Position numbers and translations under genes: made by a program. Positions 23,701 to 59,885 of a stretch of 64,000 bases of DNA are shown one piece after another. The notes under the pieces are model-generated. The model was given only the letters and a program-made list of their open reading frames with translations. It had not been told where the DNA came from and did no database searches. The stretch's first letter is position 1; each line of letters opens with the position of its first letter. This DNA comes from Paludibacteraceae bacterium (lineage in GTDB: Bacteria > Bacteroidota > Bacteroidia > Bacteroidales > Paludibacteraceae), in the NCBI GenBank assembly GCA_017471285.1, contig JAFUUZ010000026.1:27-64026 (forward strand), in the 5' to 3' direction.

Positions 23701-25390
23701 CATTGACACAACGAAGCTCTACGCCACGAACACCAACGGTGCGGTTACGAGCGATGTAGATATTGATGCCTTCGTGGATTCTCTGACCGAGGCTCAGAAG
23801 CAGGAGTTTGAGACAGAGATTGCCACGCTTCGGCTGATGAAGGCGACACAAAAGGCCGGCATCGGTTTCGACGACCTCTCGGAAGCTATCAAGAAGGTAG
23901 TGAGTGGAGACCTCGCAAATCTCACCGAAGAGGAAGGCAAGGCCGCTATGTCTCTTATCAAGGAGTACATTGGCGACTTTAAGCAACTCTTCTCTGCGAT
24001 TGACGAGTATGCCGCCGAAGCTGGTAACAACGGCCTCTCTGCTCTTGCGAATGGCTTTACCGAGGTAATGGATGTGCTGATGCCGATTGCCGAGCGTATG
24101 ATGCAAGGCGATTGGATTGGCGCAATTATCTCCGGCGTAACCTCCCTTGCAACCAAGATATTTCAAGCTGCCACGGCGCAGCAGAAACTCGCCAATGCCA
24201 TTGAAGAGGCTGCGGCCAACCAGCGCGTACTCAACGCTGAAATGGCAATCTCTATGGGTGTTGACGGAGTGTTTGGCAAGGACCAATATCGCGAACTTAT
24301 CAACGCCTACGACCAGGCCGCAGATGCCTACAAGGTTTGCGCGAGCGACATTGCTGAGGCCACGAAAAAACTCGGCGGCGGCGGCGGCAACGACAGTAAC
24401 GGTTTGGCTACGGGTATCGGCGTTGCGGCCGGCGCGGGCCTCGGCGCTGCTATCGGCGTGTGGTTTTTCGGTGTCGGCGCTCTCATTGGAGCGGCTATCG
24501 GCGCTGCGGTTGGCCTGGTGGCCGGCGCGACCATTGATATTGTCAACGAGGTTGACAACTACACGCTGACATTGCAGGAAATGGCCGACAAGATTGGCGC
24601 TCCACTTCTGACCGAGGACGGAGTGTTCAATAAGGAGACCTTGCAGAAGATTCTTGATACCTACACGGACCTCAACCAAGAGAGCGTTGCCTTCATCAAG
24701 AATCTCATTGCCAATGTGGAGATTTTCGAGAAGTCTTGCGATGCCGTAGCGGAGACAATGACCGACATCTTCGGCGATGTGGCTGAGAGCGTGGCCGATG
24801 CCTTCATTACCGCATTCAAGGAATCCGGCGAGGCTGCTCTTGACTATGCCGACATCATTGACAACCTCGCTACATCCATTGTGAGAATGGTGATGAAGTC
24901 CGCTCTGTTGCAGACTATCTTCGACGAGGATAAGGCGAAGGAGGTGGCCCGCAAGCTTGTCTCCGGCGACCTCACGGGCGCTATCGGTGCAGTTGACGAG
25001 GCTATGCAGGAGGCTCAGTCTCTCGCTCCCGTGTTCCAGGAGTGGCTTGAATCTATGCAGGGCTACTTCAAAATGGGTAGCGGTGAAAGTGGCGCTTCTC
25101 TGACCGAGGGTATGCAAGCGCTGACGGAAAGCACGGGCGACCTCTTGGCCTCCTACCTCAACGCTATCCGCGCCGATGTCTCCTACTCCAAGTCTCAGCG
25201 TGACACAATCATTGGTGTTGTCAACAGAATCGCATCCTTGCTGCCTTCCACTCCGAAGCTTGGCGACTATCTCGCGAAGATTCAAGCCAACACCTTTGAC
25301 ACGGCGCAAGCCACGCAAGACATCCTTTCGGAACTGAGGTCTGTAATGACGAACGACGGTGGAATGACTGCGATACGGGCCTATATGTAA
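20714..25390 (+). CDS. tail tape measure protein
   Basis: 1558 aa, helical and Ala/Glu/Lys-rich. Gly/Ala-rich TM-like segment GIGVAAGAGLGAAIGVWFFGVGALIGAAIGAAVGLVAG. Position follows the chaperones. Confidence 0.9.
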   Translation: MAKIDELNFQLILDDKKFNKQVKSDLKAAQDLNAQLSTLLNVKSRITGLTKSEYDSLSRAEKLEHKRRMDIEADAKAVAARKLDEAREVEILQRSNGLHKTRNRFLSEAATLAGSYISIMGATKLVSNLVRVSSEFELQRTTLRAILQDVNGADRIFEQIKSLAVVSPFSFRELVTYTKQLSAYSVPIGELYETTKMLADVSAGLGVGMDRLVLAYGQVRSAAFLRGQEVRQFTEAGIPILDELAKQFGEIEGRLVSVGEVFDKISARQVPFEMVAKVFEDMTSAGGKFYQMQEIQAETLKGKLSNLTDAYEIMFSEIGEKMSPAMKGAVDWLRSLAENYESIGRTILELVVTYGVYNAALLATEVITKSFTLSNHKLLDSLVSVAKKLKGVILSNPYALLAAGATAAAYAIYKVIQAWTEESEMMRHYQRTIKDMEAAQASEIATLDTLYAKLKLAKQGTQEYDDARNAILSKYSDHIENLRREGVEVSNLANIYSNLRTEVLAAAQERFMTTAMENADEDFAKKTEDLYKRFSAAFEKGWKGTVGGPKGIKNATALQKEAIWQWITGVKKSDEVRNLLPAGWLGFFDWIRKDFSAASKEYSQIVSDVTAAHRQLSGEIKKSTDLPKFVDIVQGILGPKDKNSFKGIWADEYTQYNDYLETLKKRYSELGQQIQLAGNAQADYVQGYKNEMDVIRRIAKALDLPTSTNVYDYVTGKSESHGGGRTEKSPEQIRIERQIELVKQLREAYEQLSPYISDERMAGTLSNIFSESINDEAEQNIVNAMHYEEKLVKLAKELAKYDPEASARLMLSIGADGAKDLVTEYKNAYDQMKAYADFMNAWKAKDFEVEGSGILVDLSKVASDLNTKLNDIESRSQKAKELLKKAQAGDKDAIESVKETYGQQFWDDFVVRGEAAIDELADKERAAARTISQEKVNDLAKKYVSEGYFLNNIDLKEFGDKTIFQLDKMRQRLQAFLDKEPLTISADFQAIVNGAGIDTTKLYATNTNGAVTSDVDIDAFVDSLTEAQKQEFETEIATLRLMKATQKAGIGFDDLSEAIKKVVSGDLANLTEEEGKAAMSLIKEYIGDFKQLFSAIDEYAAEAGNNGLSALANGFTEVMDVLMPIAERMMQGDWIGAIISGVTSLATKIFQAATAQQKLANAIEEAAANQRVLNAEMAISMGVDGVFGKDQYRELINAYDQAADAYKVCASDIAEATKKLGGGGGNDSNGLATGIGVAAGAGLGAAIGVWFFGVGALIGAAIGAAVGLVAGATIDIVNEVDNYTLTLQEMADKIGAPLLTEDGVFNKETLQKILDTYTDLNQESVAFIKNLIANVEIFEKSCDAVAETMTDIFGDVAESVADAFITAFKESGEAALDYADIIDNLATSIVRMVMKSALLQTIFDEDKAKEVARKLVSGDLTGAIGAVDEAMQEAQSLAPVFQEWLESMQGYFKMGSGESGASLTEGMQALTESTGDLLASYLNAIRADVSYSKSQRDTIIGVVNRIASLLPSTPKLGDYLAKIQANTFDTAQATQDILSELRSVMTNDGGMTAIRAYM

Positions 25391-25963: not shown

Positions 25964-28900
25964 ATGGCAAAATTCACCATTTATTCGAGCGACGGGCAAG
26001 CGGTGCGCTATACCGGCAGTCCTCGCTACAACGGCACATATCTCAAAGTTTCCTTCCTTGACTTTGGCTCTGTCAACTCGCCCACGAAAATCCCGTGGGC
26101 CGTTGGCGATTATGTGGACTACACTCGCACGGGGCTGAGGTATCGGCTCTATAACCTTCCGCAGCCCAAGAAGCAAGCCCGTGGTAGCGCTTCGGGTGAA
26201 TCCTTCACATACCCCGATGTGCAACTGCACGAAAAGACGAAGGACCTTGAAATAGCACCGTTCCGCGATTTCGTCTTTGCCGACAATCAGATTCACTTCT
26301 CCACGCTGAATACCGTCTCCACCTACGAGAATGTGTATGGCATTGTGAATCGCATCCAAGCGTGCCTTGACGACCTCTACCCGAACGAGTGGGTGGTCCG
26401 CGTCTTTGACGAGCTGGATTCCGATTTCGTAGAACTTATCAGCGAATCTCAGAACTTCTCCGTCACGGGGTCTGTAATGGACGCTTGCAACCGCCTCTAT
26501 GATATTTGGGGGATTGGTTGGATTCACACCGTAGAGAACGGGAAGGATGTGTTGACATTTGGCCGGCCAAACAAGCGCGGTGATGCCAACACCACAAACA
26601 CCTTTATCTACGGGGCGGGCAATGGTCTGACCGCAATTCGCAAGTCTGCGGCAAACCTTGATGAACTCGCTACGAGGCTCTACGCCTACGGCTCTACCCG
26701 CAATATGCTTTCCCGCTACTATAACGGCCTTGACATCAAGGATGCCGAGAGCGTAGATATTGAGCATCTGATGATTCCTCTCTCGCATTGGGGAATCACC
26801 GACGGGAAGAGAGACCCGAAGAAGGCATATCTCGAAAGCAACGCGGCAGTCTTGAAGTACGGGCTTATCCCGAAGATTGTCTATTTCGACGGTACGGACG
26901 ACTACCCCGAAATCTACCCGTCTTTGGAGGGTGTAACTATTGCCGATGTGCGGAGCGTGATGCAGCCCACAGACCAATACTATCCGAACACGACAATCTA
27001 CGACGGTACTGAGCGCGTGGACCAGGTGAAGGGTTGCGACAACCCTACTGACGACGGTAAGGAATCGGGCGATAGCGGCCAAAGGTATGTGCAGACCGCT
27101 ACGGTGGAAGGGCCGGTGAAGAGCGCTGACACAATCTCCTTTTACGGCTCTACCAACAAGGACTACACGATATTCTCCGGCATCAACTTTGGGCTTGGAG
27201 ACATTGTGAAGGTGGAGGGTGGACAGACCGGCTTTATCGACGACAATTCTGGGCTGATTGCCTCGCTGAATATCAAGGTGATTGTCACTTGCGGAAGCGA
27301 GACGGTACAGTTCCCCGTGACTTGGCGGAGGACCAACAACCGCTACTACATCGAAATCCCCGACTTCTCCTTTGCCTTCACGCCGAACGCCTCCATTTCC
27401 TGCGTGTTGCGCATTAGCGTGGCCTCCAACCGCTCCGAGCAGTCCTCTGTGTATTGTACGCTCAATGCCTTCACCTACCGAATGGGAACGGTCTATGAGT
27501 TGACAAATACATTCAAGGTCTATGTCCGCCAGCTCGGTTTCGACATCAATCAGCAAGCCTCGCTCTCGTCTGAGGGCAAGTGTTCCCTGCTGATGCGCAC
27601 GGGTATGAATGCGGCCCGTCAGTTCACAATCAAGAATGCGGAATATCGCCCTTCTACCGACGATTGGGCGTTGAATGTGAATCGTCTGATTGACGACGAC
27701 CTCGGCGAGAAGTTCCCAAACACCAACTACCCGATTGCCGAAGGCGACGAGTTTGTGCTTGTGGACCTCGCGATGCCGACAATATATATCTCCCTTGCTG
27801 AGCAGAAACTGTACGCGAAGGCATCTGCGCTCTTCGATGAAATCAACCATATCAAGCCCTTCTACGAGCCGGAGGTTGACGCGAAGAAAATGGCCGCGTC
27901 GGGTTGGGCCTTGAAGGAGGGTATGTATATGCACATCCAGGACACGGATGTTGTTGAGGACAATCCGCAGGGCAACGACTATGTGCTGATTGATACCCTC
28001 ACGATTACCGAGGGCGAAGAGGCTATCCCGACCTACAAGGTTACGCTCCGCGAAGAGAAGCGCAAGTCCTTTCAGCAAACCACCACAGAGGCAATCAGCG
28101 ACCTAAAAAGCTCTACCGGGACATCTATCAAGGTGAACACGGAGTACGCCAACAGAGCGGGGTCTGCTGATTATGCCTCTCGTGCGGGCGATGCGGACAA
28201 ATGGGCCGGCCACTCTTTCGGCGATGTCTTGGACCAAAGCGTGCGCGAGCAGGACGAGGTGAAGTTTGAGAAGGTTACGACACCAACCGTACAAAGCCCG
28301 GATTTCTCCGAAGGTGCTATGGGCGCTGGCTTCAAGATTGGAGACGACGACAACGGCAACAAGACCCTTGAAATTGACAACATCATCGTCCGCAAGGCGA
28401 TGAAGGTGTTTGAACTGATTATTCAGCAAATCAAGCACCAGGGCGGCATCGTGTTCTACTCTGCGGCCTCTATGGAGTGCAACAAGGTAGAGACCGTCAC
28501 GGGCGGCTATAAGTGCTATTTCGACACCAAAGAGGGGCAAGTTCCGAACGAGTTTGCCGTGGGCGACCAGGCCCGTTGCCAGCGCTTCAATCTCGGCACG
28601 ACGCAGCAGAAATACTATTGGCGGCTTGTGACTGCCGTAGGCGACGACTACATCATTCTGAGCGATTCCGACTGCGATACGGGTAGCGGTGTTCCCGCCG
28701 CCGGCGATGTGATTGTGCAATGTGGTAATAGGACCAACGCGCAGCGCCAAGCGGTGAAGATTACGACTTGTATGGGCGACAACACGCCGCGAGACGAATA
28801 CTACAAGAATGTCAATTCCTACAACCTCACGGGTAAGCTTGTGACGGTTGTCGGCGTGAAGGACGGTGTTGTTGGCGTGTTCACGAATCAAGGCCGTTTT

Positions 28901-31900
28901 GAGGGTGAGGTTGTCATTGGTAGCGGCTCTACGGGCCTCACCAATCTTGACGAATGGGCCGAGCAGTCTCAGCGCATTTCCGATGCCTGGGACGAGGCGT
29001 ACCAAGCTATGCAGGATGCCGCTACCGCGCAGGGTACGGCGGACCGCGCCTTACAGACGATTGAACACTACATAGACCAGGTGAACGATGATTCTATTTT
29101 CGACCTCACGGAGAAGAATCTGATTCGCAAGGAGTGGATAAACATCAACGGCATCAAGTCCACGATGCGCGGCAGCAAGAAAGGCTCGTACTATCTCACG
29201 AAGTACAACTTCGACCAGGCCGCATTCACGGGCGAGGACACCGTGTTCGTGTTCCACAATGTAGAATATACCTACAATCAGAAGAAGCTTGTCTATAAGG
29301 TCGTCGGTATCGTCGCGCTTGACGCTGCGTATCGCGAACTCCGCGACTACCTCAACTCTGTCGAATTAAACAACGAGAGCGAGGTATTCCGTGGTTTCGA
29401 CCGCGACAAGTTGGCAAATCTGCTCACGAACTACTACGATGCCGAGCAGCGCATCCGCGACATCGCGCAGCAGGCCCTTGACACCAAGATTGACGACACG
29501 AAGGCCGAACTTGAAGCCGAGTTGACAAACTACCAGGCCGTAGTCGCGCAAGCTATCGCTGACATCCAAGACCAAATTGACGGTGTGATTGACACTTGGT
29601 TTTACGCCTATGTGCCGACCACGAGCAATGCGCCGGCGAACACTTGGACCACGGATGCAGATAAGAAGAATCACATTGGCGACCTCTTCTACAACACGGA
29701 CACCGGCAAGGCGTATCGGTGGATTAAGGATAGTACGACCAATCAATACTATTGGCAGGAGTTGCAGGACGACGCTACGGCCCGCGCCCTTGCGCTTGCG
29801 CAGGAGGCAAAGGATGTTGCTGACAGTAAGCGCCGCGTATTCTACCGCCAACCCTACGATTCTGAGGCATACGACCCCGGCGATTTGTGGGTGGGCGCTA
29901 CCTACGGCACGACCTACTCTAACGACATCCTGCGGGCGCAGACTGCAAAGATTGAGGGCGCAGCCTTCAATATCTCGCATTGGGTGAAGGCTTCCAAGTA
30001 CACGGACGACACCGTGGCCCTGGACGCAAAGACACGCGCTCAGAACGCACAAGCCGCCGCCGATGCTGCGGCTACTGCCGCTTCCAATGCGGCAACGGCT
30101 GCGCAGAACGCCGCTACCGCAGCGAATCAAGCCAACACGAAGCTTTCAACTTGGGCCGACGATAGCATTATCAATCCTACCGAGAAAGAAGCCCTGCGGC
30201 AGCAATGGAAGGATGTGCAGACCGAGAAGGCCGAGGTCTGCGCTGAGGCGTTGAAGTACAAGGACTATATCACGGACTACGACACCAAGATTCAAGCCTT
30301 CATCAGCGCCTATGATGCCGCGAACTTGGCATTTCAGAAGTACACGGCGGTCTCGCCGGCCGAGATTGCGGTGGAATCCGACTACGCCAATATCTCCGCC
30401 TACTACGATGCCCGCGTGCTGATTGCCGACATCATCGCGAAGGCGGCGAAGGATATGGCCGACGAAGCGCTTGCCAATGCCGCGAGCGCTTGGGATGCCG
30501 CATACGCCGCACAACAGACTGCTAACGACGCTAAGAGCCTCGCCGAGACCGCTATGTCGTCTATCGGTATGCTGGATTCTGACAACATCCTTACGATAAA
30601 GGAGAAGGGTGCAATCCGCACGGAGTGGACCTCTATCAACGGCATCGAATCCACGGGTGTTGAGGGAATCTCCGGCCGGTACTTCCGCGCCAAGCAGTCT
30701 CTCGCTGATGCGGGCTTCAATACCAAGACTATCTTTAAGTATCGTGGAAGCAAGGCATACACTTACAATGGCGTTGGCTTCACTTACAACTGTCTTGGTC
30801 TCGCAAATCTGACTGCCGCATACCTTGACCTCCGCGCCTACTTGCAGGAGATTGAGTTGAACGACCGCAGCGAGGCTTACGATGCTTTCGACCGAGACAA
30901 GTACACGATGCTCTTGGAGCGCTACTACGATGCCGAGGCCGTGGTGACGGGCAAGAAGTCTGATGCCGCAATGGAGTTCATCAACAACGAGTACCAGGAC
31001 GACATTGAGGCTCTCAAAACTCAAATTGACGGGAAGGCCGAGACCTATGTGCAGTCCTCCGACCCTGCGACTGCGTGGAATACGGACGACTTGAAGAAGG
31101 AACACCTCGGAGATATGTGGCTGAATACCGCCGCATCCACCGTAAGCGGAATCGGCTCTATGAAAACTGCTATCTACGAGGTCCACAACAATGTGTACGG
31201 GTGGGTGCAGAAGAATGTGCCGAACGATGTGTTCGACCAAATTGACGGGAAGGCACAAGTGTTCGTCGCCCTGCCGACGAACTACCACGCGAACGACCTT
31301 TGGATTATCCTTAGCACGATTGATTCCTCCTTCTACCCGACGGGATGCACCGCCGGCGACCTCTGTGTTGCCACGACTGCGAGTTCCTCCTTCAACAAGG
31401 CGCATTGGAAGAAATATGTGAAGTACACGGACGATTCCGCCCTGCAAACCTTCATTACCAACTATCAGTCCACGCTCCTTGAAATTGAGCAGCAGATAGA
31501 CCAAAAGGCCGACACCTTCTATCAATCCTCGAAGCCTCATACGGAATACACGAATGTGCCGAATAACTCTACCTACAATCTGTGGGTTGGAGACCTTTGG
31601 TTTAACACCTCCGTGGGCCGCACATACCGCTATACCAAGACCGCGAACGGCAGCAACTTCAACTACACTTGGGTGGAGTTTGACGGTGTGCCGCAAGCCG
31701 TGTACGACCAAATTGACGGTATTGCGAGCATTTATGTCACCATTCCTTCTTCGCCGCAGACGGGCGACCTTCTGATTCCGACGAGCAACATTTCTTCGGG
31801 CGGAAGGACCTACTATGCGGGCCGAATCTACAAGTACAATGGCTCTTCCTGGGTTGAAGTTAGCTATGTTGACACCTCAACATATACCAATCAGATAAAT

Positions 31901-33250
31901 ACTATCAACCAGGTACTGAATAGCTTTGCGACCGACGGACAGATTGACGCATCCGAGAAGCGAACGCTCTCGCAAGCCCTCAGCGACGAGACGCAAGCAC
32001 GCAACGACATCGTGGCGAAGGCTGCTCCGTACTTGAATGTGACCGTTACGGTTGGCGGTGTCACTCAGACCGTTTCCCTCTTCTTGGATGCCTACAACAA
32101 GGCATACTCTACGACGAGCGGACAGAGCGGCTACCCCGGAATGAAGGAGGTAATCGAACACTACTGCAACACGGCGGGCAATGTCAACATTGACAACACG
32201 AATTGGCCGCTCTCGAAGATTACCACCTACTACGAGAAGCGTAATCTTGTGGTCCAGGCAATCAATGTCGCTGAGAAGGCGCTGATTGATTCAAAAGACA
32301 ACACGCAGACGACAATCAACGGAGGGCTTATCACTTCGGGAACTATCCAGCTCGGAAGCGGCGGAACAGTCAAGGCCGGCATCACGGGCGTTGGCACGGC
32401 GAACACAGATGTTCGCATTTGGGCCGGCTCAACCTTCGAGAATCGCGCAAGCGCCCCGTTCCGCGTCACGCAAGCGGGCAAGCTCTATGCCACAGACGCT
32501 GAGATTTCCGGCAAGATTGTCGCGACGAGCGGTGAGTTCCACGGCAAGTTGTACGCCTCCGAGGGTACGATTGGCGGCTTCAATATCGGAAGCAACTACA
32601 TCGGCCTCTCGAACTCTTCTACCGGGTCTCCGTCCCAAACGGGTATGTCGCTCTACAATCAGTTTATTGCCTTCTCCGACGACGAGAGTTCCGACACCTA
32701 CTATGGTGGCAAATACTACTCCTACATCGGCTCGAATGTGATGCCTTCCGTTGCGGGAATCCGTGGCCTGGCCCGCTTCGAGGCGGACGGGTCGTATGGC
32801 TCTACGAACGCGAACTTCGGCTATTGCATCGGCGTGTACTCAAATGTGGTAGGCTTCCGCTATCAATACGCCTGGTATTGCCCCGAAGGTGTGTTTGTCG
32901 GATTCCGCCCGCAGATTGACATTGCCAATAGTGGCAAGACGCTCACGAATCTTGATTCCGTGATTCTGTGCGGCAATTCCTACACTTGCACCTTCAATCT
33001 GCCGACCAACCCGAAGCACGGACAGTTCTATGCGATTGTGCATACGACGATGAATACTATGAATATCAGTAGTTCCGTTACGCACCCGATAATGCGCGTC
33101 ACTTCGGGCAATGGCGGCGTGACTACCGTAACATCCACCTATTCCGGCGAAGGCGAGACCGTGCTGCTTGTGTACAATGCGCACGCGACGATAACATATA
33201 GCGGAGCGACCCGCACCGGCATTTGGACCTTAACATATCTCAAAGTATAA
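25964..33250 (+). CDS. giant tail tip / tail fibre protein (2428 aa)
   Basis: Single long ORF after the Dit-like gene. Has internal duplicated modules of about 120 aa and recurrent IDG(K)...GDLW motifs. The antisense ORFs are shadows. Confidence 0.85.
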   Translation: MAKFTIYSSDGQAVRYTGSPRYNGTYLKVSFLDFGSVNSPTKIPWAVGDYVDYTRTGLRYRLYNLPQPKKQARGSASGESFTYPDVQLHEKTKDLEIAPFRDFVFADNQIHFSTLNTVSTYENVYGIVNRIQACLDDLYPNEWVVRVFDELDSDFVELISESQNFSVTGSVMDACNRLYDIWGIGWIHTVENGKDVLTFGRPNKRGDANTTNTFIYGAGNGLTAIRKSAANLDELATRLYAYGSTRNMLSRYYNGLDIKDAESVDIEHLMIPLSHWGITDGKRDPKKAYLESNAAVLKYGLIPKIVYFDGTDDYPEIYPSLEGVTIADVRSVMQPTDQYYPNTTIYDGTERVDQVKGCDNPTDDGKESGDSGQRYVQTATVEGPVKSADTISFYGSTNKDYTIFSGINFGLGDIVKVEGGQTGFIDDNSGLIASLNIKVIVTCGSETVQFPVTWRRTNNRYYIEIPDFSFAFTPNASISCVLRISVASNRSEQSSVYCTLNAFTYRMGTVYELTNTFKVYVRQLGFDINQQASLSSEGKCSLLMRTGMNAARQFTIKNAEYRPSTDDWALNVNRLIDDDLGEKFPNTNYPIAEGDEFVLVDLAMPTIYISLAEQKLYAKASALFDEINHIKPFYEPEVDAKKMAASGWALKEGMYMHIQDTDVVEDNPQGNDYVLIDTLTITEGEEAIPTYKVTLREEKRKSFQQTTTEAISDLKSSTGTSIKVNTEYANRAGSADYASRAGDADKWAGHSFGDVLDQSVREQDEVKFEKVTTPTVQSPDFSEGAMGAGFKIGDDDNGNKTLEIDNIIVRKAMKVFELIIQQIKHQGGIVFYSAASMECNKVETVTGGYKCYFDTKEGQVPNEFAVGDQARCQRFNLGTTQQKYYWRLVTAVGDDYIILSDSDCDTGSGVPAAGDVIVQCGNRTNAQRQAVKITTCMGDNTPRDEYYKNVNSYNLTGKLVTVVGVKDGVVGVFTNQGRFEGEVVIGSGSTGLTNLDEWAEQSQRISDAWDEAYQAMQDAATAQGTADRALQTIEHYIDQVNDDSIFDLTEKNLIRKEWININGIKSTMRGSKKGSYYLTKYNFDQAAFTGEDTVFVFHNVEYTYNQKKLVYKVVGIVALDAAYRELRDYLNSVELNNESEVFRGFDRDKLANLLTNYYDAEQRIRDIAQQALDTKIDDTKAELEAELTNYQAVVAQAIADIQDQIDGVIDTWFYAYVPTTSNAPANTWTTDADKKNHIGDLFYNTDTGKAYRWIKDSTTNQYYWQELQDDATARALALAQEAKDVADSKRRVFYRQPYDSEAYDPGDLWVGATYGTTYSNDILRAQTAKIEGAAFNISHWVKASKYTDDTVALDAKTRAQNAQAAADAAATAASNAATAAQNAATAANQANTKLSTWADDSIINPTEKEALRQQWKDVQTEKAEVCAEALKYKDYITDYDTKIQAFISAYDAANLAFQKYTAVSPAEIAVESDYANISAYYDARVLIADIIAKAAKDMADEALANAASAWDAAYAAQQTANDAKSLAETAMSSIGMLDSDNILTIKEKGAIRTEWTSINGIESTGVEGISGRYFRAKQSLADAGFNTKTIFKYRGSKAYTYNGVGFTYNCLGLANLTAAYLDLRAYLQEIELNDRSEAYDAFDRDKYTMLLERYYDAEAVVTGKKSDAAMEFINNEYQDDIEALKTQIDGKAETYVQSSDPATAWNTDDLKKEHLGDMWLNTAASTVSGIGSMKTAIYEVHNNVYGWVQKNVPNDVFDQIDGKAQVFVALPTNYHANDLWIILSTIDSSFYPTGCTAGDLCVATTASSSFNKAHWKKYVKYTDDSALQTFITNYQSTLLEIEQQIDQKADTFYQSSKPHTEYTNVPNNSTYNLWVGDLWFNTSVGRTYRYTKTANGSNFNYTWVEFDGVPQAVYDQIDGIASIYVTIPSSPQTGDLLIPTSNISSGGRTYYAGRIYKYNGSSWVEVSYVDTSTYTNQINTINQVLNSFATDGQIDASEKRTLSQALSDETQARNDIVAKAAPYLNVTVTVGGVTQTVSLFLDAYNKAYSTTSGQSGYPGMKEVIEHYCNTAGNVNIDNTNWPLSKITTYYEKRNLVVQAINVAEKALIDSKDNTQTTINGGLITSGTIQLGSGGTVKAGITGVGTANTDVRIWAGSTFENRASAPFRVTQAGKLYATDAEISGKIVATSGEFHGKLYASEGTIGGFNIGSNYIGLSNSSTGSPSQTGMSLYNQFIAFSDDESSDTYYGGKYYSYIGSNVMPSVAGIRGLARFEADGSYGSTNANFGYCIGVYSNVVGFRYQYAWYCPEGVFVGFRPQIDIANSGKTLTNLDSVILCGNSYTCTFNLPTNPKHGQFYAIVHTTMNTMNISSSVTHPIMRVTSGNGGVTTVTSTYSGEGETVLLVYNAHATITYSGATRTGIWTLTYLKV

Positions 33251-33254
33251 CATT

Positions 33255-33539
33255 ATGAAAAGGATTGATTTCAAGCACTTTGAAATGTTCCAAGACATTT
33301 CGCAGACCTCCACAATGGAGCAGGACATTTCCCACGATTTCGCAGACTTCGTGTACAAGAACGCCAATGGCGTAATGGCGCACGACATCGCTATGCGAAT
33401 CTACAAGTCGGACGGGCCAATTGACCTCACGGACGAAGAGCTGGCCCTGCTCACTACTATGGCAGAGATTGGCACTCCAATCTTTGCCGATTCCTTCCAC
33501 GCGAACATTAAGGATATTCCTAACAACACCCAATCTTAA
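33255..33539 (+). CDS. hypothetical protein (94 aa)
   Basis: Track ORF between the fibre gene and DGR target 1. Confidence 0.55.
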   Translation: MKRIDFKHFEMFQDISQTSTMEQDISHDFADFVYKNANGVMAHDIAMRIYKSDGPIDLTDEELALLTTMAEIGTPIFADSFHANIKDIPNNTQS

Positions 33540-33550
33540 TTTCTATCATT

Positions 33551-34876
33551 ATGACAGAGCAAGACATTACCACCTTGACCCCCGTGTACACGAATCCTCG
33601 TGTGCTTGAAGGTCTCGCAATCGTGGCCCACAATCCCTCTACGGGAGACCCGATTGCATTCGATGCCGGCAAGCTTTGCAACACCGCGTTCAAAGACTTG
33701 TCTATGTACACTATCTACGGTGGCTCTCTCGCCAAGCGCGAGACCGCCAACTGCTATGTTATCAAGGAGGCCGGAGCGTATATGTTCCCCCTCGTCTATG
33801 GTAACGCTATCAAGGGCGGCGTAGCCAACCCCAACGCCTACACGAACAACGGTGCGACCTACTCCAACGACTTCGTGAACTCCCGCGATGTGCAAATCAC
33901 CTCGCCCTTCATCGAACTCAACACCGGCTGCGCCGTGGCATCCTGCGAGGTTGTGTGGCAGGACCACCAGGACCTCATTCAGAATCTCGAACTCTACGAA
34001 GGTGGCGACTGCAAGTATGTCCGCTTCATCATTGATTCGATGCCTTCCCTCAACGCAAACGCGATTATCGCGGTCAAGGACGGGTCGGGCAACATTCTGT
34101 GGAGCTGGCACATTTGGTGCTGCCTGGACGACCTTTCGCCTATCACCTTCACCAACCACACCGAGGTCAACTACGACCTTATGCCGATTAACCTCGGTTG
34201 GAAGTGGGATTCTACCGACCGTCTCCGTGGCCGCTCCCCGCACTATCAATGGGGGCGCAAAGACCCGATGCCCTGCCCTGCGGCCTACAACTCCAATAGC
34301 AACACTTCTCTGTGGGGCGCAAAGACCTACGGCTCTGCTGAGGCCGACACTATCGGCGCGGCAATCAAGAATCCGCACCTCTTCTACAAGCAGGACGGTG
34401 AGACCTACTACAATTGGTTTACCGGCGGAAGCAAGTACAATCTGTGGAATGCCGCAGTCACCACGACCGGCGCGGGCGACGACCAAGCCTCGGCCAAAAA
34501 GACTATCTATGACCCCTGCCCCGTCGGGTTTATGCTCCCTGCGGGTCGCGCCTTCACGGGCTTCACTACCTCCGGCGGCAATGTCAGTAGCGGCGCTCCT
34601 ACGGGCTGCGAGGTTATCGGCGAGTGGTCGAACGGTTGGACGATGAAGAAGAATGCCAACGATACTGTCGGTAACTTCTTTGCCGCATCCGGCAGCCGTG
34701 GTAGGACTTCGGGTGCGCTCCTCAATGTTGGCAGCCGCGGCAACTATTGGTCTTTTGCCTCCGATAGCCGGGCTAGCGCTTACCTCTTGCGCTTCGATTC
34801 GAGCAGCCTCTACCCGTTGAACGGCGACCGCCGGGCTTACGGTTTCGCGGTGCGGCCTTGCCGAGAATTATCTTAA
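33551..34876 (+). CDS. DGR target protein 1 (441 aa), C-terminal CLec-type variable domain (DUF1566 / Fib_succ_major-like)
   Basis: The C-terminus ...FAASGSRGRTSGALLNVGSRGNYWSFASDSRASAYLLRFDSSSLYPLNGDRRAYGFAVRPCRE carries VR1. Upstream are DPCPVGFMLPAG and WGRKDP motifs. Confidence 0.9.
   Translation: MTEQDITTLTPVYTNPRVLEGLAIVAHNPSTGDPIAFDAGKLCNTAFKDLSMYTIYGGSLAKRETANCYVIKEAGAYMFPLVYGNAIKGGVANPNAYTNNGATYSNDFVNSRDVQITSPFIELNTGCAVASCEVVWQDHQDLIQNLELYEGGDCKYVRFIIDSMPSLNANAIIAVKDGSGNILWSWHIWCCLDDLSPITFTNHTEVNYDLMPINLGWKWDSTDRLRGRSPHYQWGRKDPMPCPAAYNSNSNTSLWGAKTYGSAEADTIGAAIKNPHLFYKQDGETYYNWFTGGSKYNLWNAAVTTTGAGDDQASAKKTIYDPCPVGFMLPAGRAFTGFTTSGGNVSSGAPTGCEVIGEWSNGWTMKKNANDTVGNFFAASGSRGRTSGALLNVGSRGNYWSFASDSRASAYLLRFDSSSLYPLNGDRRAYGFAVRPCRELS
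34681..34865 (+). repeat. DGR variable region VR1
   Basis: Gap-free 185-nt match to TR 35656..35840. 24 mismatches by hand count, all at TR adenines. Confidence 0.93.
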
Positions 34877-34928
34877 TTCCTTTCGTTTGAGGCGAGCGTT
34901 TTAAGCGAGCCGGTGATATTAAAGACAT

Positions 34929-35117
34929 TTGCGTATGAAGTCGAAGTTTAACATAAGGCATATTCACAATTCGATAGTCTTTATCTGCGATAGCTCTGAG
35001 GGTGACGAAGTTCTACGAGCAGTCAAGGATTTCGATTTGGCGAACGCTACCCCTATGCAATGCTTCGACTTCTTGCGCAAACTTAAAAACCTCTTCCGAA
35101 AGAATGGAGACGCATAA
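34929..35117 (+). CDS. small ORF (62 aa) between VR1 and avd, function unknown
   Basis: Track ORF that overlaps the avd start by 14 nt. Could be a DGR accessory gene or spurious. Confidence 0.35.
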   Translation: MRMKSKFNIRHIHNSIVFICDSSEGDEVLRAVKDFDLANATPMQCFDFLRKLKNLFRKNGDA

Positions 35118-35454
35118 ACTCAAAGTATATAACCGCGCCCGTCTCTTGTCTGAGCAAATCGTCAAGAGTACGGGTAAAGTGCCTCGCTTCGCGAAGTACA
35201 GTTATGTTGACCCTATGATTGTTTCAGTCTATGGGATAATGGAGTATATCTCATTTGCCAACGATACGCCCGAACAAAGGGTGCAATTCATTGACACCGC
35301 ACTCGCCGCCTTGAATCAACTGAAAATCAAGGTGCGCGTACTGCGTGACTTGAAGTTCGTGACGCAGAAGGGATATGATGCGATAATCCGCGAGGAAGAG
35401 AATGTCACGCGGCAGCTTAACGGTTGGCGAAAAACTACACTCGGTGAACAATAA
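35104..35454 (+). CDS. avd: DGR accessory variability determinant (Avd, four-helix-bundle family)
   Basis: 116 aa from ATG 35104 (METHKLKVYNRARLLSEQIVKSTGKVPRFAKYSYVDPMI...QLNGWRK). The pattern is typical of Avd / 23S-IVS-protein-like bundles. Sits between VR and TR. Confidence 0.8.
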   Translation: METHKLKVYNRARLLSEQIVKSTGKVPRFAKYSYVDPMIVSVYGIMEYISFANDTPEQRVQFIDTALAALNQLKIKVRVLRDLKFVTQKGYDAIIREEENVTRQLNGWRKTTLGEQ

Positions 35455-35655
35455 TCTAACATATCGCATACGGTATAGGCAGAATCCCTACCGTCCCGTG
35501 GTAACGCACGACGGGCTGGGAGCGTCCTTCTTAATTCAGTCCGCCACCTCAACTTTCAGAGGATATGTCAGAAGCGTTCCGGCAACGGGCGTGGAAGTCT
35601 GCTTCATTGCTTGTAACAACATTCAATCCTGCATTCACAAAACGGTGGACTCTGT

Positions 35656-35840
35656 TGCCGCATCCGGCAACCGTAATAGAACTTCGGGTGCGCTCAACAA
35701 TGTTGGCAGCAACGGCAACTATTGGTCTTTTGCCTCCAATAGCCAGGCTAACGCTTACAACTTGAACTTCAATTCGAGCAACCTCAACCCGTTGAACAAC
35801 AACAACCGGGCTAACGGTTTCGCGGTGCGGCCTTGCCGAG
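35656..35840 (+). repeat. DGR template repeat (TR)
   Basis: AAC-rich copy of the VR sequence (reads as ...SGNRNRTSGALNNVGSNGNYWSFASNSQANAYNLNFNSSNLNPLNNNNRANGFAVRPC). Ends 21 nt before the first RT ATG. Confidence 0.93.
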
Positions 35841-35861
35841 CATTGAGAGACCGTGTGCGAT

Positions 35862-37073
35862 ATGTTTTTTCATAGTACGATGAAACACTACACGAGAGAG
35901 GAAATACATCTGTTGGTGACGCAGGGCTATCTTGATGCTCGGCAGAATGAGCGCAGCAAAGGCACTCAGCTTCTGTACGAGATTCACCAAGAGACCAACA
36001 TTGCCGACCTCACCAATGCCTTGTATAACCGCGAGTGGAAACCCGCGCCTCCTATCGTGTTTGTCGTGACTGACCCTACTGTACGCGAGGTCTTTGCGCC
36101 TCAGTTCCCGGATAGGATTGTCAGCCACATCGTCTATTCCTTGTTGTCGCCGCTTTTCGAGCGCCGCTTCATCTACGATTCCTACTCTTGCCGAAAAGGG
36201 AAGGGAACGCTCTTCGGTATAGAGCGCTTCGAGCATCATATCCGAAGCGTGACCGACAACTACAAGTACACCGCCTACATCCTCAACCTGGATATATCGG
36301 GCTACTTTATGAGCATCCACAAGCCTACGCTCTACGACATCATCCATACCACCCTTGACGAGTATGCCGCTCGCGACTGCCGGCCGGGAGTGAAGTGGTC
36401 CGATGTCATAGATTTCGAGTTCTGTGACTATGTTATCCGCCAAATCCTCTTTCGCGACCCGTTGAAGGGAAGTATCTATATGGGCGACCCGAAGCTTCGC
36501 GCCCTCGTGCCGCCACAGAAGCTGCTGCGCAATTCTCCTGCGGACACGGGATTGATTATTGGCGATTTGACCTCGCAACTTTTCAGCAATGTCTATCTCA
36601 ACCCCTTCGACCATTTCGTGAAGAGGGTGTTGCATATCAAGGGCTATGGCCGATATGTTGACGACGGGCGTATGATTCATCGCGACAAGGACTATCTGTT
36701 GGAGTGCAAGGAGCGCTCCACGGTGTTCTTGAAGGAGCGTCTGCGCCTTGTGGTCCACCCGACCAAGACCACCATTACCTCTACGGAAGAGACCAACTTC
36801 TTCCTCGGCGCAGCGATACGGGACTACCGCCGCTATGCCAAGAACGATACTGTCGGCCACTTCCACGAGACTGTGCGCCTCTACGAGAGGGCCATTGAGA
36901 CGGGGGCATACCTTGACCTCCTGGGTATGTACTCGGTGTTGAACTCCTACCTCGGTTACTTTCAGCACTTCAAGGCCAAGACTATCGTGGAGCGCACGCT
37001 GCGCGAATCCCCGGTGTTGAACTACTTTACGCTCACGCCAAACTGCAAGAAAGTTATTCTCAAACCCTTATAA
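35862..37073 (+). CDS. DGR reverse transcriptase
   Basis: GRYVDDG (YxDD catalytic box), LTSQLFSNVYLNPFDHF, and SCRKGKGT upstream. Start is ambiguous (GTG 35853, ATG 35862 or ATG 35880). Confidence 0.92.
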   Translation: MFFHSTMKHYTREEIHLLVTQGYLDARQNERSKGTQLLYEIHQETNIADLTNALYNREWKPAPPIVFVVTDPTVREVFAPQFPDRIVSHIVYSLLSPLFERRFIYDSYSCRKGKGTLFGIERFEHHIRSVTDNYKYTAYILNLDISGYFMSIHKPTLYDIIHTTLDEYAARDCRPGVKWSDVIDFEFCDYVIRQILFRDPLKGSIYMGDPKLRALVPPQKLLRNSPADTGLIIGDLTSQLFSNVYLNPFDHFVKRVLHIKGYGRYVDDGRMIHRDKDYLLECKERSTVFLKERLRLVVHPTKTTITSTEETNFFLGAAIRDYRRYAKNDTVGHFHETVRLYERAIETGAYLDLLGMYSVLNSYLGYFQHFKAKTIVERTLRESPVLNYFTLTPNCKKVILKPL

Positions 37074-37077
37074 CATT

Positions 37078-37443
37078 ATGAGACAGTACACTTTACCTTA
37101 TGAGCCGAGCGCCTTTGAGCAGCTCGTGAACGGACTGTTCCGCGTGTTCTACAATGTGGAGAAGTCCTCTGAAACCATTACCACTACCGACGAGGAAGGT
37201 CACGAGACCTCCGAGACGCACGACATTTGGCTTTGCAATGCCGTTGACATTGAAGGCCCGATGAACGAATCCGCCTACGCCCGCCTGGTGTCCGCTATCA
37301 TCCGCGACAAGTACACGGTTGACGACGAGCTGGCACTTGAACGCCACGCCCGCAAGGGAGACCACGCTGAGGAAATTGCCGAACACGACGACTTCGCTGA
37401 GGCCGCAAAGACCTTCGCCAAGTCTGTTCTTGGTATGGAGTAG
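37078..37443 (+). CDS. hypothetical acidic protein (121 aa) directly after RT
   Basis: Track ORF beginning 4 nt after the RT stop. Confidence 0.55.
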   Translation: MRQYTLPYEPSAFEQLVNGLFRVFYNVEKSSETITTTDEEGHETSETHDIWLCNAVDIEGPMNESAYARLVSAIIRDKYTVDDELALERHARKGDHAEEIAEHDDFAEAAKTFAKSVLGME

Positions 37444-37489: not shown

Positions 37490-37497
37490 TACTTTTG
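37490..37497 (+). promoter_or_regulatory. Bacteroidota -7 box TActTTTG ahead of the lysis genes
   Basis: Exact TAnnTTTG, 27 nt upstream of ATG 37524. Confidence 0.5.
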
Positions 37498-38837: not shown

Positions 38838-39287
38838 ATGACTGAGAAAGTGACTATGAACATTTCTCGCAATTTCACTTTCGCGGAGTTCGAGGAATCT
38901 CCGACTGCAAAGGCGAAGGGCATCGTGAATGTCATTAACACCTTCGAGATTCGGGATTCTATCGTCGCACTTGTCCGTGATGTCCTGCAACCTCTGCGGG
39001 ACATCTACGGTAAGCCGATGAAGGTCAATTCCGGCTACCGATGCCCCGAACTCAACGCTGCCGTTGGAGGTGTCGCCACCTCTCAGCACACGAAGGGCGA
39101 AGCTGCCGACATCCACACGGGCAGCGAGGCGGAATCCTACCGCCTGGCGAAACTCGCAAAGGATGCCAAGCTGCCCTACGACCAGCTTATCCTCTATCCG
39201 ACTTTCGTCCACATCAGCCACAAGCTGAAAGGCGAGCAGAGACAGAGGATTCTCTACAACTCGTCCTATCGGGGAAAGAAATTCTAA
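38838..39287 (+). CDS. endolysin, peptidase M15 (zinc D-Ala-D-Ala carboxypeptidase-like) family
   Basis: NSGYRCPELNAAVGGVATSQHTKGEAADI matches the SGYR..LN...GG...SQH..G.A.D signature. Trimmed to ATG 38838. Confidence 0.85.
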   Translation: MTEKVTMNISRNFTFAEFEESPTAKAKGIVNVINTFEIRDSIVALVRDVLQPLRDIYGKPMKVNSGYRCPELNAAVGGVATSQHTKGEAADIHTGSEAESYRLAKLAKDAKLPYDQLILYPTFVHISHKLKGEQRQRILYNSSYRGKKF

Positions 39288-42582: not shown

Positions 42583-42607
42583 CCGCGCCCTTCGAGATAG
42601 GGCGCGG
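42583..42607 (-). other. GC hairpin downstream of DGR target 2
   Basis: 8-bp stem CCGCGCCC/GGGCGCGG with a 9-nt loop and no U-tract. Lies in the gap 42557..42620. Confidence 0.35.
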
Positions 42608-42620
42608 AGCAGAAAAGGCT

Positions 42621-43226
42621 TTAATTTAATTCTCGGCAAGGCCGCACCGCGAAACCGTAAGCCCGGCCGTTGTTGCCCAACGGGTAGAGGTCGCTCGAAT
42701 AGAAGCCCAAGTAGTAAGCGTTAGCCTGGCTATCGGAGGCAAAAGACCAATAGCGGCCGTAGCTGCCAACATTGGTGAGCGCACCCGAAGCGCTAACACG
42801 GTAGCCGGAGGCTGGTAGGAAGATAGAGTTGCCATTAGGACCGACGACATCGTAGCCCTTCTTGTCAGAGTTCCAGGTCCACTTGCACTCTTCTACGAGT
42901 TCCGCGATAGCGACCGCTTTCGGAAGGAATTTGCCGAAGATGTCAACGGCCTCGTAGTGCGTGTAGTAGTCGGGCGCATTCTCTGTGGCCCACAGTCGGC
43001 CCGAAGGGAGGCCGAGGTCAACATACTTGAAGGCATCGGGATTGAAGGTTTCCTTCGTCAGCTTATTGGGATTGGCCTTCTTTTCGGGCCGCTCCGAAAT
43101 ACTGATGTCAGACACCTCCATACCCTCCGTATCTTCAACCATTTCGTTGAACAATTCCTCAATGTAGGAATCGCTCTTCTCTCCAAAAATATCGTTGGAG
43201 AGGTCAAGTTCGATAGTTACTTTCAT
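42621..43226 (-). CDS. DGR target protein 2 (201 aa), same CLec-type variable C-terminus
   Basis: ...FLPASGYRVSASGALTNVGSYGRYWSFASDSQANAYYLGFYSSDLYPLGNNGRAYGFAVRPCREL carries VR2. The N-terminus is acidic with no signal peptide. Confidence 0.88.
   Translation of the reverse strand: MKVTIELDLSNDIFGEKSDSYIEELFNEMVEDTEGMEVSDISISERPEKKANPNKLTKETFNPDAFKYVDLGLPSGRLWATENAPDYYTHYEAVDIFGKFLPKAVAIAELVEECKWTWNSDKKGYDVVGPNGNSIFLPASGYRVSASGALTNVGSYGRYWSFASDSQANAYYLGFYSSDLYPLGNNGRAYGFAVRPCRELN
42632..42812 (-). repeat. DGR variable region VR2 (remote, opposite strand)
   Basis: The reverse complement aligns gap-free to TR 35660..35840. 22 mismatches by hand count, all at TR adenines. Confidence 0.9.
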
Positions 43227-58718: not shown

Positions 58719-59885
58719 TTACTTGAAGAAGGGGGAATCCATTAGCTTCTGAGCGTTCTCTTCCTTCGTGATGCGGATGTACTTGGCAAAGTTGGATTCC
58801 GACTGATGCCCGGTAATAAGCATAATCTGCCTTTCGGGGAGACCCGACAGATACAGTAGCGTAGCCCCGGTCCTCCGCGCCGTGTGGCTGCTGACGAATT
58901 TCCACTTCGGCTCGCGCTTCGTGACGCTCTTCGCTCCGAGCGTAATGGTCCGCTCGCAAGGCGTATTGATGCCGGCATCCTTGCACACCTTCTTTATCAG
59001 CACATCATAGTAGCGCACATCCATTTGCGGCGAATGGCCTCCATTTCGGTCCATAAGCAGCTTGACTTTTGGGGATAGTGGCATAATGACGGGGATGCCC
59101 GTCTTTTGCTGCGTGAAGCGAAGCGTATTGCCGACGATATTCTCCGTCGTCAAGCGGACCACATCGGAATAGCGGGATGCCGTGTACACTCCAAGCAGAA
59201 AGAGGTCGCGGGCCTCGGTCTTGCGGCCGGTCAGCTTCACATCCCACAACAGTTGCAGTTCGTCCTCTGTCAGATAGATTGCGCCCGTATCTTCGCCCAT
59301 TCTGCGAAAGTCAAGGAAGGCAAGGTTACTGTGGTAATTCAGCTTCGCCCCCTCGCGCATTATGGTCTTTACCATACCGAAGTATGTACCCTGCGAGTTT
59401 TTGGCAACACCCTCGTCCTCCATTTTGCGGATGAATCGGAAGGCCCACGACGAATCAATGTCATTCCAATTGTCCCCGTCGCCCATAAGGGCCTTAATCT
59501 TGTTGTAGCGATTCTTGCGGCATCGCTTGCTCTTGCAGGGCCGTTCCACATACTCGGCGAAGTGTTCCCAAAAGGTAGGGACGACTTTGCCGTTGACGAC
59601 CTTCGGGGCTTCCTGGTCCTCAGCGCCACTCAGCGCCCAATCCAAGATGCCGTTGATTTGCTCGTCCGTGGAAAATTCGTTGAGGTGCGATTCGAGCCGG
59701 ATGCGAATGCTTTTCAGCTTCTCTTCTTTCGAGACGACCGCGCACTTCTGCTTCTTGACGGACCAATCAGACACATTGCAGGAAATGCCAACACTCCTGC
59801 GGTACACTTTACCCTTGTTGGTAATGACGACCCGAATAGGAGACACCTTCGCCTTCGGGTACACGAGGTTGAAATTGATTCTCAT
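58719..59885 (-). CDS. int: tyrosine integrase (Bacteroidota phage type with N-terminal arm-binding-like domain)
   Basis: C-terminal ...SSHTARRTGATLLYLSGLPERQIMLITGHQSESNFAKYI (HxxR...H...Y). 388 aa. Confidence 0.9.
   Translation of the reverse strand: MRINFNLVYPKAKVSPIRVVITNKGKVYRRSVGISCNVSDWSVKKQKCAVVSKEEKLKSIRIRLESHLNEFSTDEQINGILDWALSGAEDQEAPKVVNGKVVPTFWEHFAEYVERPCKSKRCRKNRYNKIKALMGDGDNWNDIDSSWAFRFIRKMEDEGVAKNSQGTYFGMVKTIMREGAKLNYHSNLAFLDFRRMGEDTGAIYLTEDELQLLWDVKLTGRKTEARDLFLLGVYTASRYSDVVRLTTENIVGNTLRFTQQKTGIPVIMPLSPKVKLLMDRNGGHSPQMDVRYYDVLIKKVCKDAGINTPCERTITLGAKSVTKREPKWKFVSSHTARRTGATLLYLSGLPERQIMLITGHQSESNFAKYIRITKEENAQKLMDSPFFK

Follow-up and report, generated by a model that had tools for sequence, protein, structure and literature searches.

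This report concerns a 64,000-nucleotide (nt) stretch of contig JAFUUZ010000026.1 from a Paludibacteraceae bacterium, referred to as a whole as the window, and a diversity-generating retroelement (DGR) that it carries. To our knowledge, prokaryotes and their viruses have no other natural system for the targeted hypermutation of proteins than DGRs, which are under development as tools for directed evolution. The original prediction, made from the letters of the window, was of a complete phage-borne DGR next to a tail fibre gene. The open reading frames (ORFs, sizes in amino acids, aa) and repeats of the element are the following, with the isoelectric point (pI) given for two of the products.

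33551-34876, plus strand: T1, the first target gene, 441 aa; second ORF after a 2428-aa ORF
34681-34865, plus strand: first variable repeat (VR1), 185 nt; codes T1 residues 378-438
34929-35117, plus strand: 62-aa ORF (60 aa from the ATG at 34935); overlaps the start of avd by 14 nt
35104-35454, plus strand: avd, 116 aa, pI 9.65
35656-35840, plus strand: template repeat (TR), 185 nt, 47 adenines
35862-37073, plus strand: DGR reverse transcriptase (RT), 403 aa, or 397 aa if the start is at 35880
37078-37443, plus strand: 121-aa acidic ORF, pI 4.56
42621-43226, minus strand: T2, the second target gene, 201 aa, in the replication gene block
about 42632-42812, minus strand: second variable repeat (VR2), at the 3' end of the T2 gene

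The differences between the template and the variable repeats are confined to adenines. In a scripted alignment TR and VR1 pair without gaps over 185 nt and differ at 24 positions (A>G 15, A>C 5, A>T 4), and this hand count of the original prediction proved exact. All 24 mismatches fall on TR adenines and all 138 non-A positions are identical, for which the hypergeometric chance is 1.8e-17. The similarity collapses right outside the repeat on both sides. VR2 was found by sliding the TR over both strands of the whole window. Within TR 35663-35840 it shows 22 differences, all 22 at TR adenines (p 1e-15), and its three non-A mismatches all lie at the 5' edge where the homology ends. A third variable repeat was not found in the window, also when shorter TR windows were used. 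The parts list given earlier was thus exact in its coordinates and counts, but it had overlooked the second target, T2 with VR2, and the structured spacer between avd and TR.

The TR contains 18 AAY codons, and of its 47 adenines 44 occupy codon position 1 or 2. In theory about 1e26 peptides could be made for each target, with a stop codon reachable only through a single AGA codon. The TR is open in frame, and a 157-aa ORF that runs across it (35402-35875) is a spurious gene call. In many relatives (P0003-P0008 and others) gene calls give RTs of 510-580 aa whose N-terminal extension is translated TR. Database entries for long RTs of 510-550 aa were considered as fusions of the RT with the 121-aa protein and rejected as artefacts of this in-frame reading through the TR.

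The RT is a single ORF of 403 aa with a first ATG at 35862, 21 nt after the TR, and a second at 35880, 39 nt after it, which agrees with the earlier reading of a roughly 400-aa RT starting 21-40 nt after the TR. Both motifs then noted, GRYVDDG and QLFSNVYLNPFD, are present, and so is YVDD. The protein matches RVT_1 in Pfam and PHROG 1423 at 3e-77. Its best relative in the PDB is the Bordetella phage RT, bRT (8ub7, E 5.8e-18, over partial stretches), and the DGR-typical motif IGDLTSQLFSNVY aligns to IGSLTSQLFANVY of bRT; retron-type RTs and those of group II introns reach 2e-5 to 2e-4. Among the matches listed in a tblastn search of GenBank phages, all are annotated RTs or unannotated sequence, none exceeds 36% identity, and they include Bordetella phages and Bacteroides and crAss phages reported to carry DGRs. 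A-specific TR/VR pairs of their own are present in 64 of the 90 loci fetched around RT relatives, which makes the RT clade, judged by function, one of DGRs. The 116-aa ORF between VR1 and TR had been read as Avd-like. Its match to the Pfam family 23S_rRNA_IVP (2e-10) is above the cut-off, and it also matches PHROG 3206, 'Avd protein of DGR' (4e-13); the matches to bAvd (1e-7) and NCBIfam DivGenRetAVD (4.5e-10) fall below the cut-offs. The assignment as Avd stands.

Close relatives were reached through the RT protein, where P0001 (99% identical) led to contig L004. This contig covers window positions 25409-47075 at 98.3-98.4% identity, with a background divergence of 1.6%. VR1 differs between the window and L004 at 25 of 185 positions, all at TR adenines, and VR2 differs at 26 positions, of which 25 are at TR adenines and one is at the 5' edge. 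The TR has a single polymorphism at 35759 (TR position 104), which is A in the window and T in L004 and in a further contig, L006. Both VRs of L004 carry T at the matching site, as expected if non-adenines are copied faithfully. This natural substitution in the TR removes one diversifiable site.

A larger set of variants was drawn from 90%-identity clusters of T1 and T2 and consists of 14 and 16 distinct full-length variants, respectively, from other samples. In the T1 variants, 26 of the 64 residues from the start of the VR to the C-terminus vary, 24 of these at TR-adenine codons, and outside the VR only 13 of 377 residues vary. In the T2 variants, 23 VR positions vary, 22 of them at TR-adenine codons, compared with 8 of 137 positions outside the VR. 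The variable VR residues that lie off TR-adenine codons are 413 and 432 in T1 and 138 in T2; either ordinary substitution or a polymorphic TR in other strains may account for them. The population comparison was made on assemblies from different samples and not on reads within one sample. The earlier note had proposed that variation should be confined to TR-adenine sites, and this held across samples and in near-identical genomes, one edge position aside. The between-sample variation indicates continuing diversification of both targets in natural populations.

It has to be considered whether the element could be a relic, in which the TR and VRs diverged in the past and the cassette is now dead. 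VR1 is identical in L004 and L006, which come from different samples, and this counts in favour of a relic. The RT, avd and both targets are, however, intact ORFs, genomes that are 98% identical have wholly different A-site patterns in both VRs, and the 14 and 16 distinct variants of T1 and T2 are spread across samples, which makes a relic extremely improbable. The A-specific differences in two targets, the Avd, the bRT-like RT, the TR/VR pairs of the relative loci and the population variation all bear out the DGR interpretation of the original prediction. The region is almost certainly an active, complete phage-borne DGR with the avd-TR-RT architecture and two targets.

The two target proteins share a related C-terminus but have different layouts. 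T1 has an all-beta N-terminal region of ~290 aa and a C-terminal FISUMP/DUF1566-like, putatively lectin-type domain that holds VR1. Residues 293-435 match TIGR02145 (Fib_succ_major) at E 3.7e-7. The homologues of T1 (n=994) are ~440 aa in length and come from Bacteroidales phage contigs, and one of them (P0157) has an N-terminal Phage_fiber_rpt domain, which consists of tail-fibre repeats. The AlphaFold2 model of T1 has a predicted local distance difference test (pLDDT) score of 93, and its best match in BFVD is a phage Fib_succ_major protein (E 8e-3, probability 0.98). In T2 the N-terminal ~55 aa are acidic and precede a stand-alone domain, DUF8237/DUF1566-like and putatively lectin-type, that holds VR2; its C-terminal 94 aa are 56% identical to the C-terminus of T1. 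The T2 homologues (n=951) are mostly 141-160 aa and carry the precomputed label PF26707/DUF8237. Relatives of T1 and T2 carry PF26707, PF07603 and PF09603; Pfam gave no family for T1 or T2 themselves even at E up to 10, and PHROGs likewise gave nothing.

The model of T2 has a pLDDT of 88.5 and its best PDB match is the C-terminal domain of Legionella Lcl (8q4e, E 0.014, probability 1.0, template modelling score 0.52); C-type lectins rank next with non-significant scores. The Lcl domain and the DUF1566/FISUMP family are the best structural and family matches, and they have in common with the targets a lectin-type fold, which is putative in the targets, and a C-terminal variable beta-hairpin region. 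They differ in that the matches are sub-threshold or moderate (31 bits against a cut-off of 41.65 for TIGR02145; E 0.014 for 8q4e). The C-type lectin (CLec)-type variable pocket proposed earlier is supported at that level. A lectin-type fold (DUF1566/FISUMP) of the variable domain therefore has moderate support from these matches, short of proof.

The position of T1 relative to the structural genes of the phage bears on its function. The following genes surround it.

20714-25390, plus strand: tape measure
25964-33250, plus strand: 2428-aa giant tail protein
33255-33539, plus strand: 94-aa ORF
38838-39287, plus strand: endolysin (lysis genes)

The ORF list confirms that T1 is the second gene after the 2428-aa fibre gene, as had been read. 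From this gene position after the giant tail protein, T1 is most likely a receptor-binding or adhesion tip. It has also been proposed that Tentaclin-type DGR targets bind non-host ligands (PMC10743442), and T1 could instead bind mucus, other cells or a phage-internal partner, while T2 could be a virion decoration and not an intracellular protein. Neither structural nor family evidence ties the N-terminal region of T1 to the tail. This alternative is nevertheless rather unlikely, given that T1 comes after both the tape measure and the 2428-aa tail protein, that a T1 homologue bears phage tail-fibre repeats, and that T2 and its orthologue in contig L091 lie among replication genes on the early strand.

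The neighbours of T2 are RuvC, the beta clamp, DnaB and SSB. The orthologue of T2 in L091 (10001-10555), another phage of 63 kb in which ERF, SSB and DnaB are present, follows directly after DnaB, and a homologue lies at the end of the early region in a Mu-like phage (L092 10001-10459/L093). Stand-alone DUF8237 proteins akin to T2 are thus found in the early/replication regions of phages L091 and L092, which are unrelated. Why do unrelated gut phages retain a small hypervariable lectin-like protein among their early/replication genes? The ORFs of 200-201 aa that follow the RT in the relatives L008 and L010 were considered as counterparts of T2 and are unrelated to it.

A two-target layout has been described for Quimbyvirus ('Quimbyviridae') by Benler et al. 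in 2021, a temperate Bacteroidales gut phage whose genome is of similar order (median 75 kb; PMC8008677), and is for this reason not new. The comparison is based on the published description. Like the window, Quimbyvirus has one DGR and two targets of lectin type (putatively so in the window), one of which comes after the tail fibre genes, while the other is distal, on the opposite strand and in a non-structural region (PMC8008677). There, too, A-site variation among near-identical genomes demonstrated activity (PMC8008677). The two differ in the RT, which is a single intact ORF in the window but is divided among three overlapping frames in Quimbyvirus, and in that the Quimbyvirus DGR differs in placement: its second target lies among methyltransferases, a nuclease and a tRNA ligase and not among replication genes. 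In two more distant relatives, L012 (11836-11945) and L013 (12688-12809), a second, shorter VR of 110-122 nt is found on the strand of the RT, ~5 kb downstream of it. Second targets thus recur within the RT clade, at differing places.

The 3' ends of the repeats resemble the initiation of mutagenic homing (IMH) sequences of other DGRs, and a hairpin is found near one of them.

34840-34870, plus strand: IMH-like 3' end of VR1; A-free, GC-rich CGGTTTCGCGGTGCGGCCTTGCCG, then AGAATTA
35815-35845, plus strand: IMH*-like 3' end of the TR; AGCATTG where the VRs read AGAATTA
42583-42607, minus strand: GC-rich 9-bp hairpin CCGCGCCCT/AGGGCGCGG, 24 nt downstream of VR2

A 24-nt stretch that is A-free and GC-rich is identical in TR, VR1 and VR2. 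Directly after it both VRs read AGAATTA and the TR reads AGCATTG, which by sequence is an IMH/IMH*-like distinction. The sole adenine in the 3' end, at 35839, is unmutated in both VRs of the window and both VRs of L004 (VR1 of L006 is the same as that of L004), which fits initiation of the cDNA upstream of 35839. The hairpin after VR2 has a DNA fold of -13.4 kcal/mol (z score -2.95). Downstream of the TR no comparable hairpin was found by DNA folding, and in the relatives L008, L010 and L003 such hairpins follow VR1.

The element can be compared with the DGR of Bordetella phage BPP-1 (mtd-avd-TR-brt). Both elements have the order target, avd, TR, RT and adenine-specific mutagenesis, a C-terminal VR on a lectin-type fold (putative in the window) and a GC-rich, A-free IMH-like end, and a GC hairpin follows one VR here. 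bRT is also the closest solved relative of the window RT, though the similarity is distant. The window is unlike BPP-1 in having two targets, which are of the FISUMP/DUF1566 type rather than Mtd-like, and extra small ORFs. A further difference lies in the non-coding RNA. In BPP-1 the TR comes directly after avd, and TR and brt are separated by a 144-nt structured spacer (Sp), from which come the primer (Sp A56) and stem-loops that bind protein (PMC6182149; bioRxiv 10.1101/2023.10.23.563531). In the window it is avd and TR that a structured spacer, of 201 nt, separates, and the distance from the TR to the start of the RT is 21 nt. The features of this spacer and of a predicted helix between the TR and the RT gene are the following.

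35455-35655, plus strand: avd-TR spacer, 201 nt
35475-35639, plus strand: conserved structured leader RNA in the spacer
35485-35520, plus strand: leader hairpin A
35533-35539, plus strand: leader invariant AATTCAG
35597-35636, plus strand: leader hairpin B
35833-35848, plus strand: 5' arm of a 16-bp helix, in the TR 3' end
35930-35945, plus strand: 3' arm of the 16-bp helix, in RT codons Y-L-D-A-R-Q

The avd-TR spacer holds an RNA whose structure is conserved. Across nine relatives with an RT identity of 42-64%, the leader folds at -24.6 kcal/mol in RNAalifold with compensatory changes in 21 of 27 pairs. Of the alignment cells, 93% pair, and the covariation score is 0.71; slid registers give 32-44% and no more than 0.15, respectively, and none of 500 shuffles reached the observed pairing and covariation. 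A covariance model (R1) found weaker copies of the leader in further loci (E 4e-4 to 0.7). All are plus-strand copies upstream of the RT, and in loci with a mapped TR they come immediately 5' of it. Rfam matched nothing in the cassette at gathering or permissive thresholds. Throughout the RT clade the TR ends ~10-60 nt before the RT and the gap between avd and TR is 150-260 nt.

The spacer might instead be a regulatory 5' untranslated region, a promoter region or a terminator for the expression of TR and RT, and not part of the template RNA bound by RT and Avd. Its position between two genes suits a regulatory leader, complementarity of the leader to the TR is not demonstrated, and the essential structured RNA of BPP-1 lies downstream of the TR (PMC6182149). 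Set against this, the leader is just 5' of the TR in all loci where both were mapped, the TR abuts the RT in the clade (~10-60 nt) so that no other non-coding RNA is available, and cDNA synthesis in BPP-1 needs RNA on both sides of the TR (PMC6182149; bioRxiv 10.1101/2023.10.23.563531). A sigma-70 or Bacteroidetes -7 box is also absent from the spacer. A purely regulatory role is unlikely on balance, and a role of the leader in the template RNA is preferred. The leader is a concrete object for asking how the abundant Bacteroidota-type DGRs in which the TR abuts the RT prime cDNA synthesis.

The 16-bp helix between the 3' end of the TR and the first RT codons is a candidate counterpart of the template:primer duplex that TR and Sp form in BPP-1, and is not established as such. 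Its fold has a z score of -2.95, none of 200 shuffles folds as well, and it is kept in a 521-nt fold. In the subclade alignment 68% of the cells pair in the register of the helix, compared with 33-39% in slid registers, and none of 500 shuffles did as well.

Several observations weigh against reading the region as an active, complete DGR. VR1 is without the GC-rich hairpin that boosts homing in BPP-1 (DNA fold downstream of VR1, z +0.8). The full T1 model has no match in the PDB or BFVD at E<1e-3 with Foldseek, and neither T1 nor T2 reaches a curated family threshold. The TR-3'/RT-5' helix is just moderately conserved and RNAalifold recovers it weakly. A test of this pairing in 45 loci, in which cognate and non-cognate duplex energies were compared, was negative (p 0.65), and because of this result the helix is not claimed as a general feature. 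The spacer is located upstream and not downstream of the TR, and therefore BPP-1 priming cannot simply be transferred to the window. Activity is deduced indirectly, from between-sample variation. With regard to the hairpin, it appears not to be required here, as both VRs are equally diversified, and a GC-rich inverted repeat downstream of the IMH was found in only 34% of DGRs by Wu et al. (PMC5758913).

On the DGR reading, an RT-Avd complex would bind an RNA that contains the structured leader, the TR and the start of the RT gene. The RT would copy the TR to cDNA, faithfully except opposite adenines, and the cDNA would replace the homologous variable repeat at the 3' end of the two genes. What the sequences show is the layout of the element, the adenine specificity at T1 and T2, the continuing diversification of both in natural populations, the families of RT and Avd and the conserved leader structure. 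Where the RNA begins and ends, where priming takes place, what the 62-aa and 121-aa proteins do and which ligands T1 and T2 bind are inferred.

The two small ORFs were suggested earlier as possible accessory genes. Comparison with relatives supports both, most strongly the 62-aa ORF, which has the C-terminal motif of Msl; searches of Pfam, PHROGs and NCBIfam gave no family match for either ORF. The C-terminal ~35 aa of the 62-aa ORF (DFDLANATPMQCFDFLRKLKNL) recur in 22 other DGR loci by tblastn. In close relatives the motif is in an ORF of 54-58 aa just before avd, and distant DGRs (Gammaproteobacteria, Saprospiraceae, Balneolaceae and others) carry it as the C-terminal end of proteins of 144-250 aa beside avd or the RT. 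Four of five of these long motif proteins match Pfam MutS_I weakly by their N-terminal part (E 0.004-0.23). The weak matches and the position of the motif agree with the 'Msl' accessory gene described by Wu et al. and in the DGRs of Bacteroides integrative and conjugative elements (ICEs). The 62-aa ORF has no MutS_I match in Pfam and is too short to hold a MutS_I domain, and its product would at most work like the C-terminal module of Msl. It is a candidate for a minimal Msl-like accessory.

The Bacteroides ICE DGRs (Macadangdang et al., bioRxiv 10.1101/2024.11.15.621889; Wu et al. 2018, PMC5758913) resemble the window in belonging to Bacteroidota and in having Avd plus a MutS-like accessory gene, and the 62-aa ORF shares its C-terminal motif with the long Msl-like proteins of the RT clade of the window. 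They are unlike it in that the described Msl proteins are 112-283 aa with a MutS mismatch-recognition-like domain, whereas the window ORF is 60-62 aa with the C-terminal motif only, and in that their targets are pilus tip adhesins and not phage proteins. A different cassette order, namely target, long Msl-like gene, RT, avd and TR, was observed in L044, L060, L065, L067, L079, L080, L081 and L085. These RT relatives are assigned to metagenome-assembled genomes (MAGs) of Gammaproteobacteria, Saprospiraceae, Chitinophagales, Balneolaceae and Flavobacteriales, and ~14 nt separate the end of the Msl-like gene from the RT.

When a profile of the motif was aligned with E. coli MutS by hhalign, residues 821-852 were the one place that matched, with E 1.2e-5 (probability 81%) when only the last 70 aa were used and E 5.9e-4 (probability 29%) for the whole protein. 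These residues are part of the C-terminal dimer/tetramerisation domain of MutS (residues 801-853; PMC1636413). Searches of PDB sequences with the Msl-motif profile and the long-Msl profile (hmmsearch) found no MutS. The link between the 62-aa motif and the C-terminus of MutS is suggestive only. Host MutS lowers retrohoming in Bacteroides 5- to 10-fold in an all-or-nothing manner, and a role for the Msl C-terminal motif is of interest for that reason. A testable idea is that the 62-aa protein mimics the C-terminal domain of MutS and interferes with it.

In each of the eight distinct relative loci with an RT identity of 42-64%, a homologue of the 121-aa protein (26-46% identity) is encoded immediately downstream of the RT, and the genes that follow the 121-aa ORF are not conserved among these loci. 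Elsewhere among the 90 loci homologues were undetectable. The family has 52 representatives among 1.84 billion proteins, and no fusion with an RT was found among the 1.84 billion representatives. The 121-aa gene is linked to the cassette and is specific to a subclade.

Neither small ORF need be part of the DGR; the 62-aa ORF could be a chance or vestigial ORF, and the 121-aa ORF an ordinary phage gene, for example for tail or lysis, that happens to lie beside the RT. Wu et al. have cautioned that such genes may be plain conserved phage genes (PMC5758913). The lack of family matches would be in line with this, as would the failure of the motif profiles to find MutS in the PDB. L008 and L009 are without the 62-aa ORF yet have A-specific VR differences, and the 121-aa family, never fused to an RT, is limited to one subclade whose members share one tail-to-lysis gene order. 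The 62-aa motif, on the other hand, is beside avd or RT in 22 loci of different phyla and gene orders and aligns only with the extreme C-terminus of MutS, and the 121-aa gene is kept directly after the RT in eight of eight loci while the genes beyond it are replaced. It is somewhat doubtful, therefore, that both ORFs are bystanders, though that alternative has to be taken seriously, and an accessory role is the preferred reading. With regard to transcription, a Bacteroidetes-type -7 box (TACTTTTG) is present at 37490-37497, between the 121-aa ORF and the next gene, and is the only one in 32-38 kb of the window. Its position would put the 121-aa ORF in the transcription unit of the RT; a single match is no more than expected by chance.

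The unusual features of the locus can be joined in one proposal, in which the machinery of BPP-1 is rearranged, with an upstream leader RNA, a primer embedded in the RT gene and a 62-aa MutS mimic, and in which T2 is in addition an intracellular protein. As a whole this proposal is improbable. An RNA that RT and Avd require may lie upstream of the TR; this would be the ~165-nt leader, which has two covarying hairpins and no entry in Rfam. The primer strand may lie inside the first RT codons, by means of the 16-bp helix with the 3' end of the TR. The 62-aa protein may be a free-standing mimic of the MutS C-terminal oligomerisation domain; if true, the many mismatches of the cDNA:VR heteroduplex would be protected by it from host MutS. 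In this proposal T2 is not a part of the virion but a hypervariable binder inside the cell, expressed with the replication genes.

The two-target layout, the combination of Avd with Msl and the lectin-type targets are already known. What would be new if confirmed are the covarying leader RNA upstream of the TR, the minimal ORF that resembles Msl and the C-terminus of MutS, and the RT-linked 121-aa gene. These three items are common to a clade and are not unique to the window locus. The locus reveals no new principle; its value is as a clean and intact example that is active in nature and of which many variants have been sequenced.

Nearly all of a temperate tailed phage is contained in the window, with terminase, portal, capsid protein, tape measure, giant tail protein, endolysin and integrase. 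The carrier is a ~64.5-kb tailed Bacteroidales phage, for which sister contigs of 64.4-67.9 kb were found, and one copy was binned in a Paludibacteraceae MAG. The nearest RTs in species genomes are 50-52% identical and come from rumen and gut Bacteroidales MAGs. Megablast and distant blastn searches of GenBank phages gave no nucleotide match to the cassette or to the leader plus TR, and an exact-pattern scan of viral contigs for the TR with N in place of each A was likewise negative. The phage carries a tyrosine integrase (58719-59885) and is probably temperate. A tRNA-Met (60776-60849) is found ~900 nt from the integrase gene, and it may be phage-borne or a mark of the attachment region. The giant tail protein is 2428 aa in the window and 2271 aa in L004, a contig that is otherwise 98% identical to the window. 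The difference is an in-frame block of ~459 nt at window positions 31046-31505, which indicates modular variation in fibre length.

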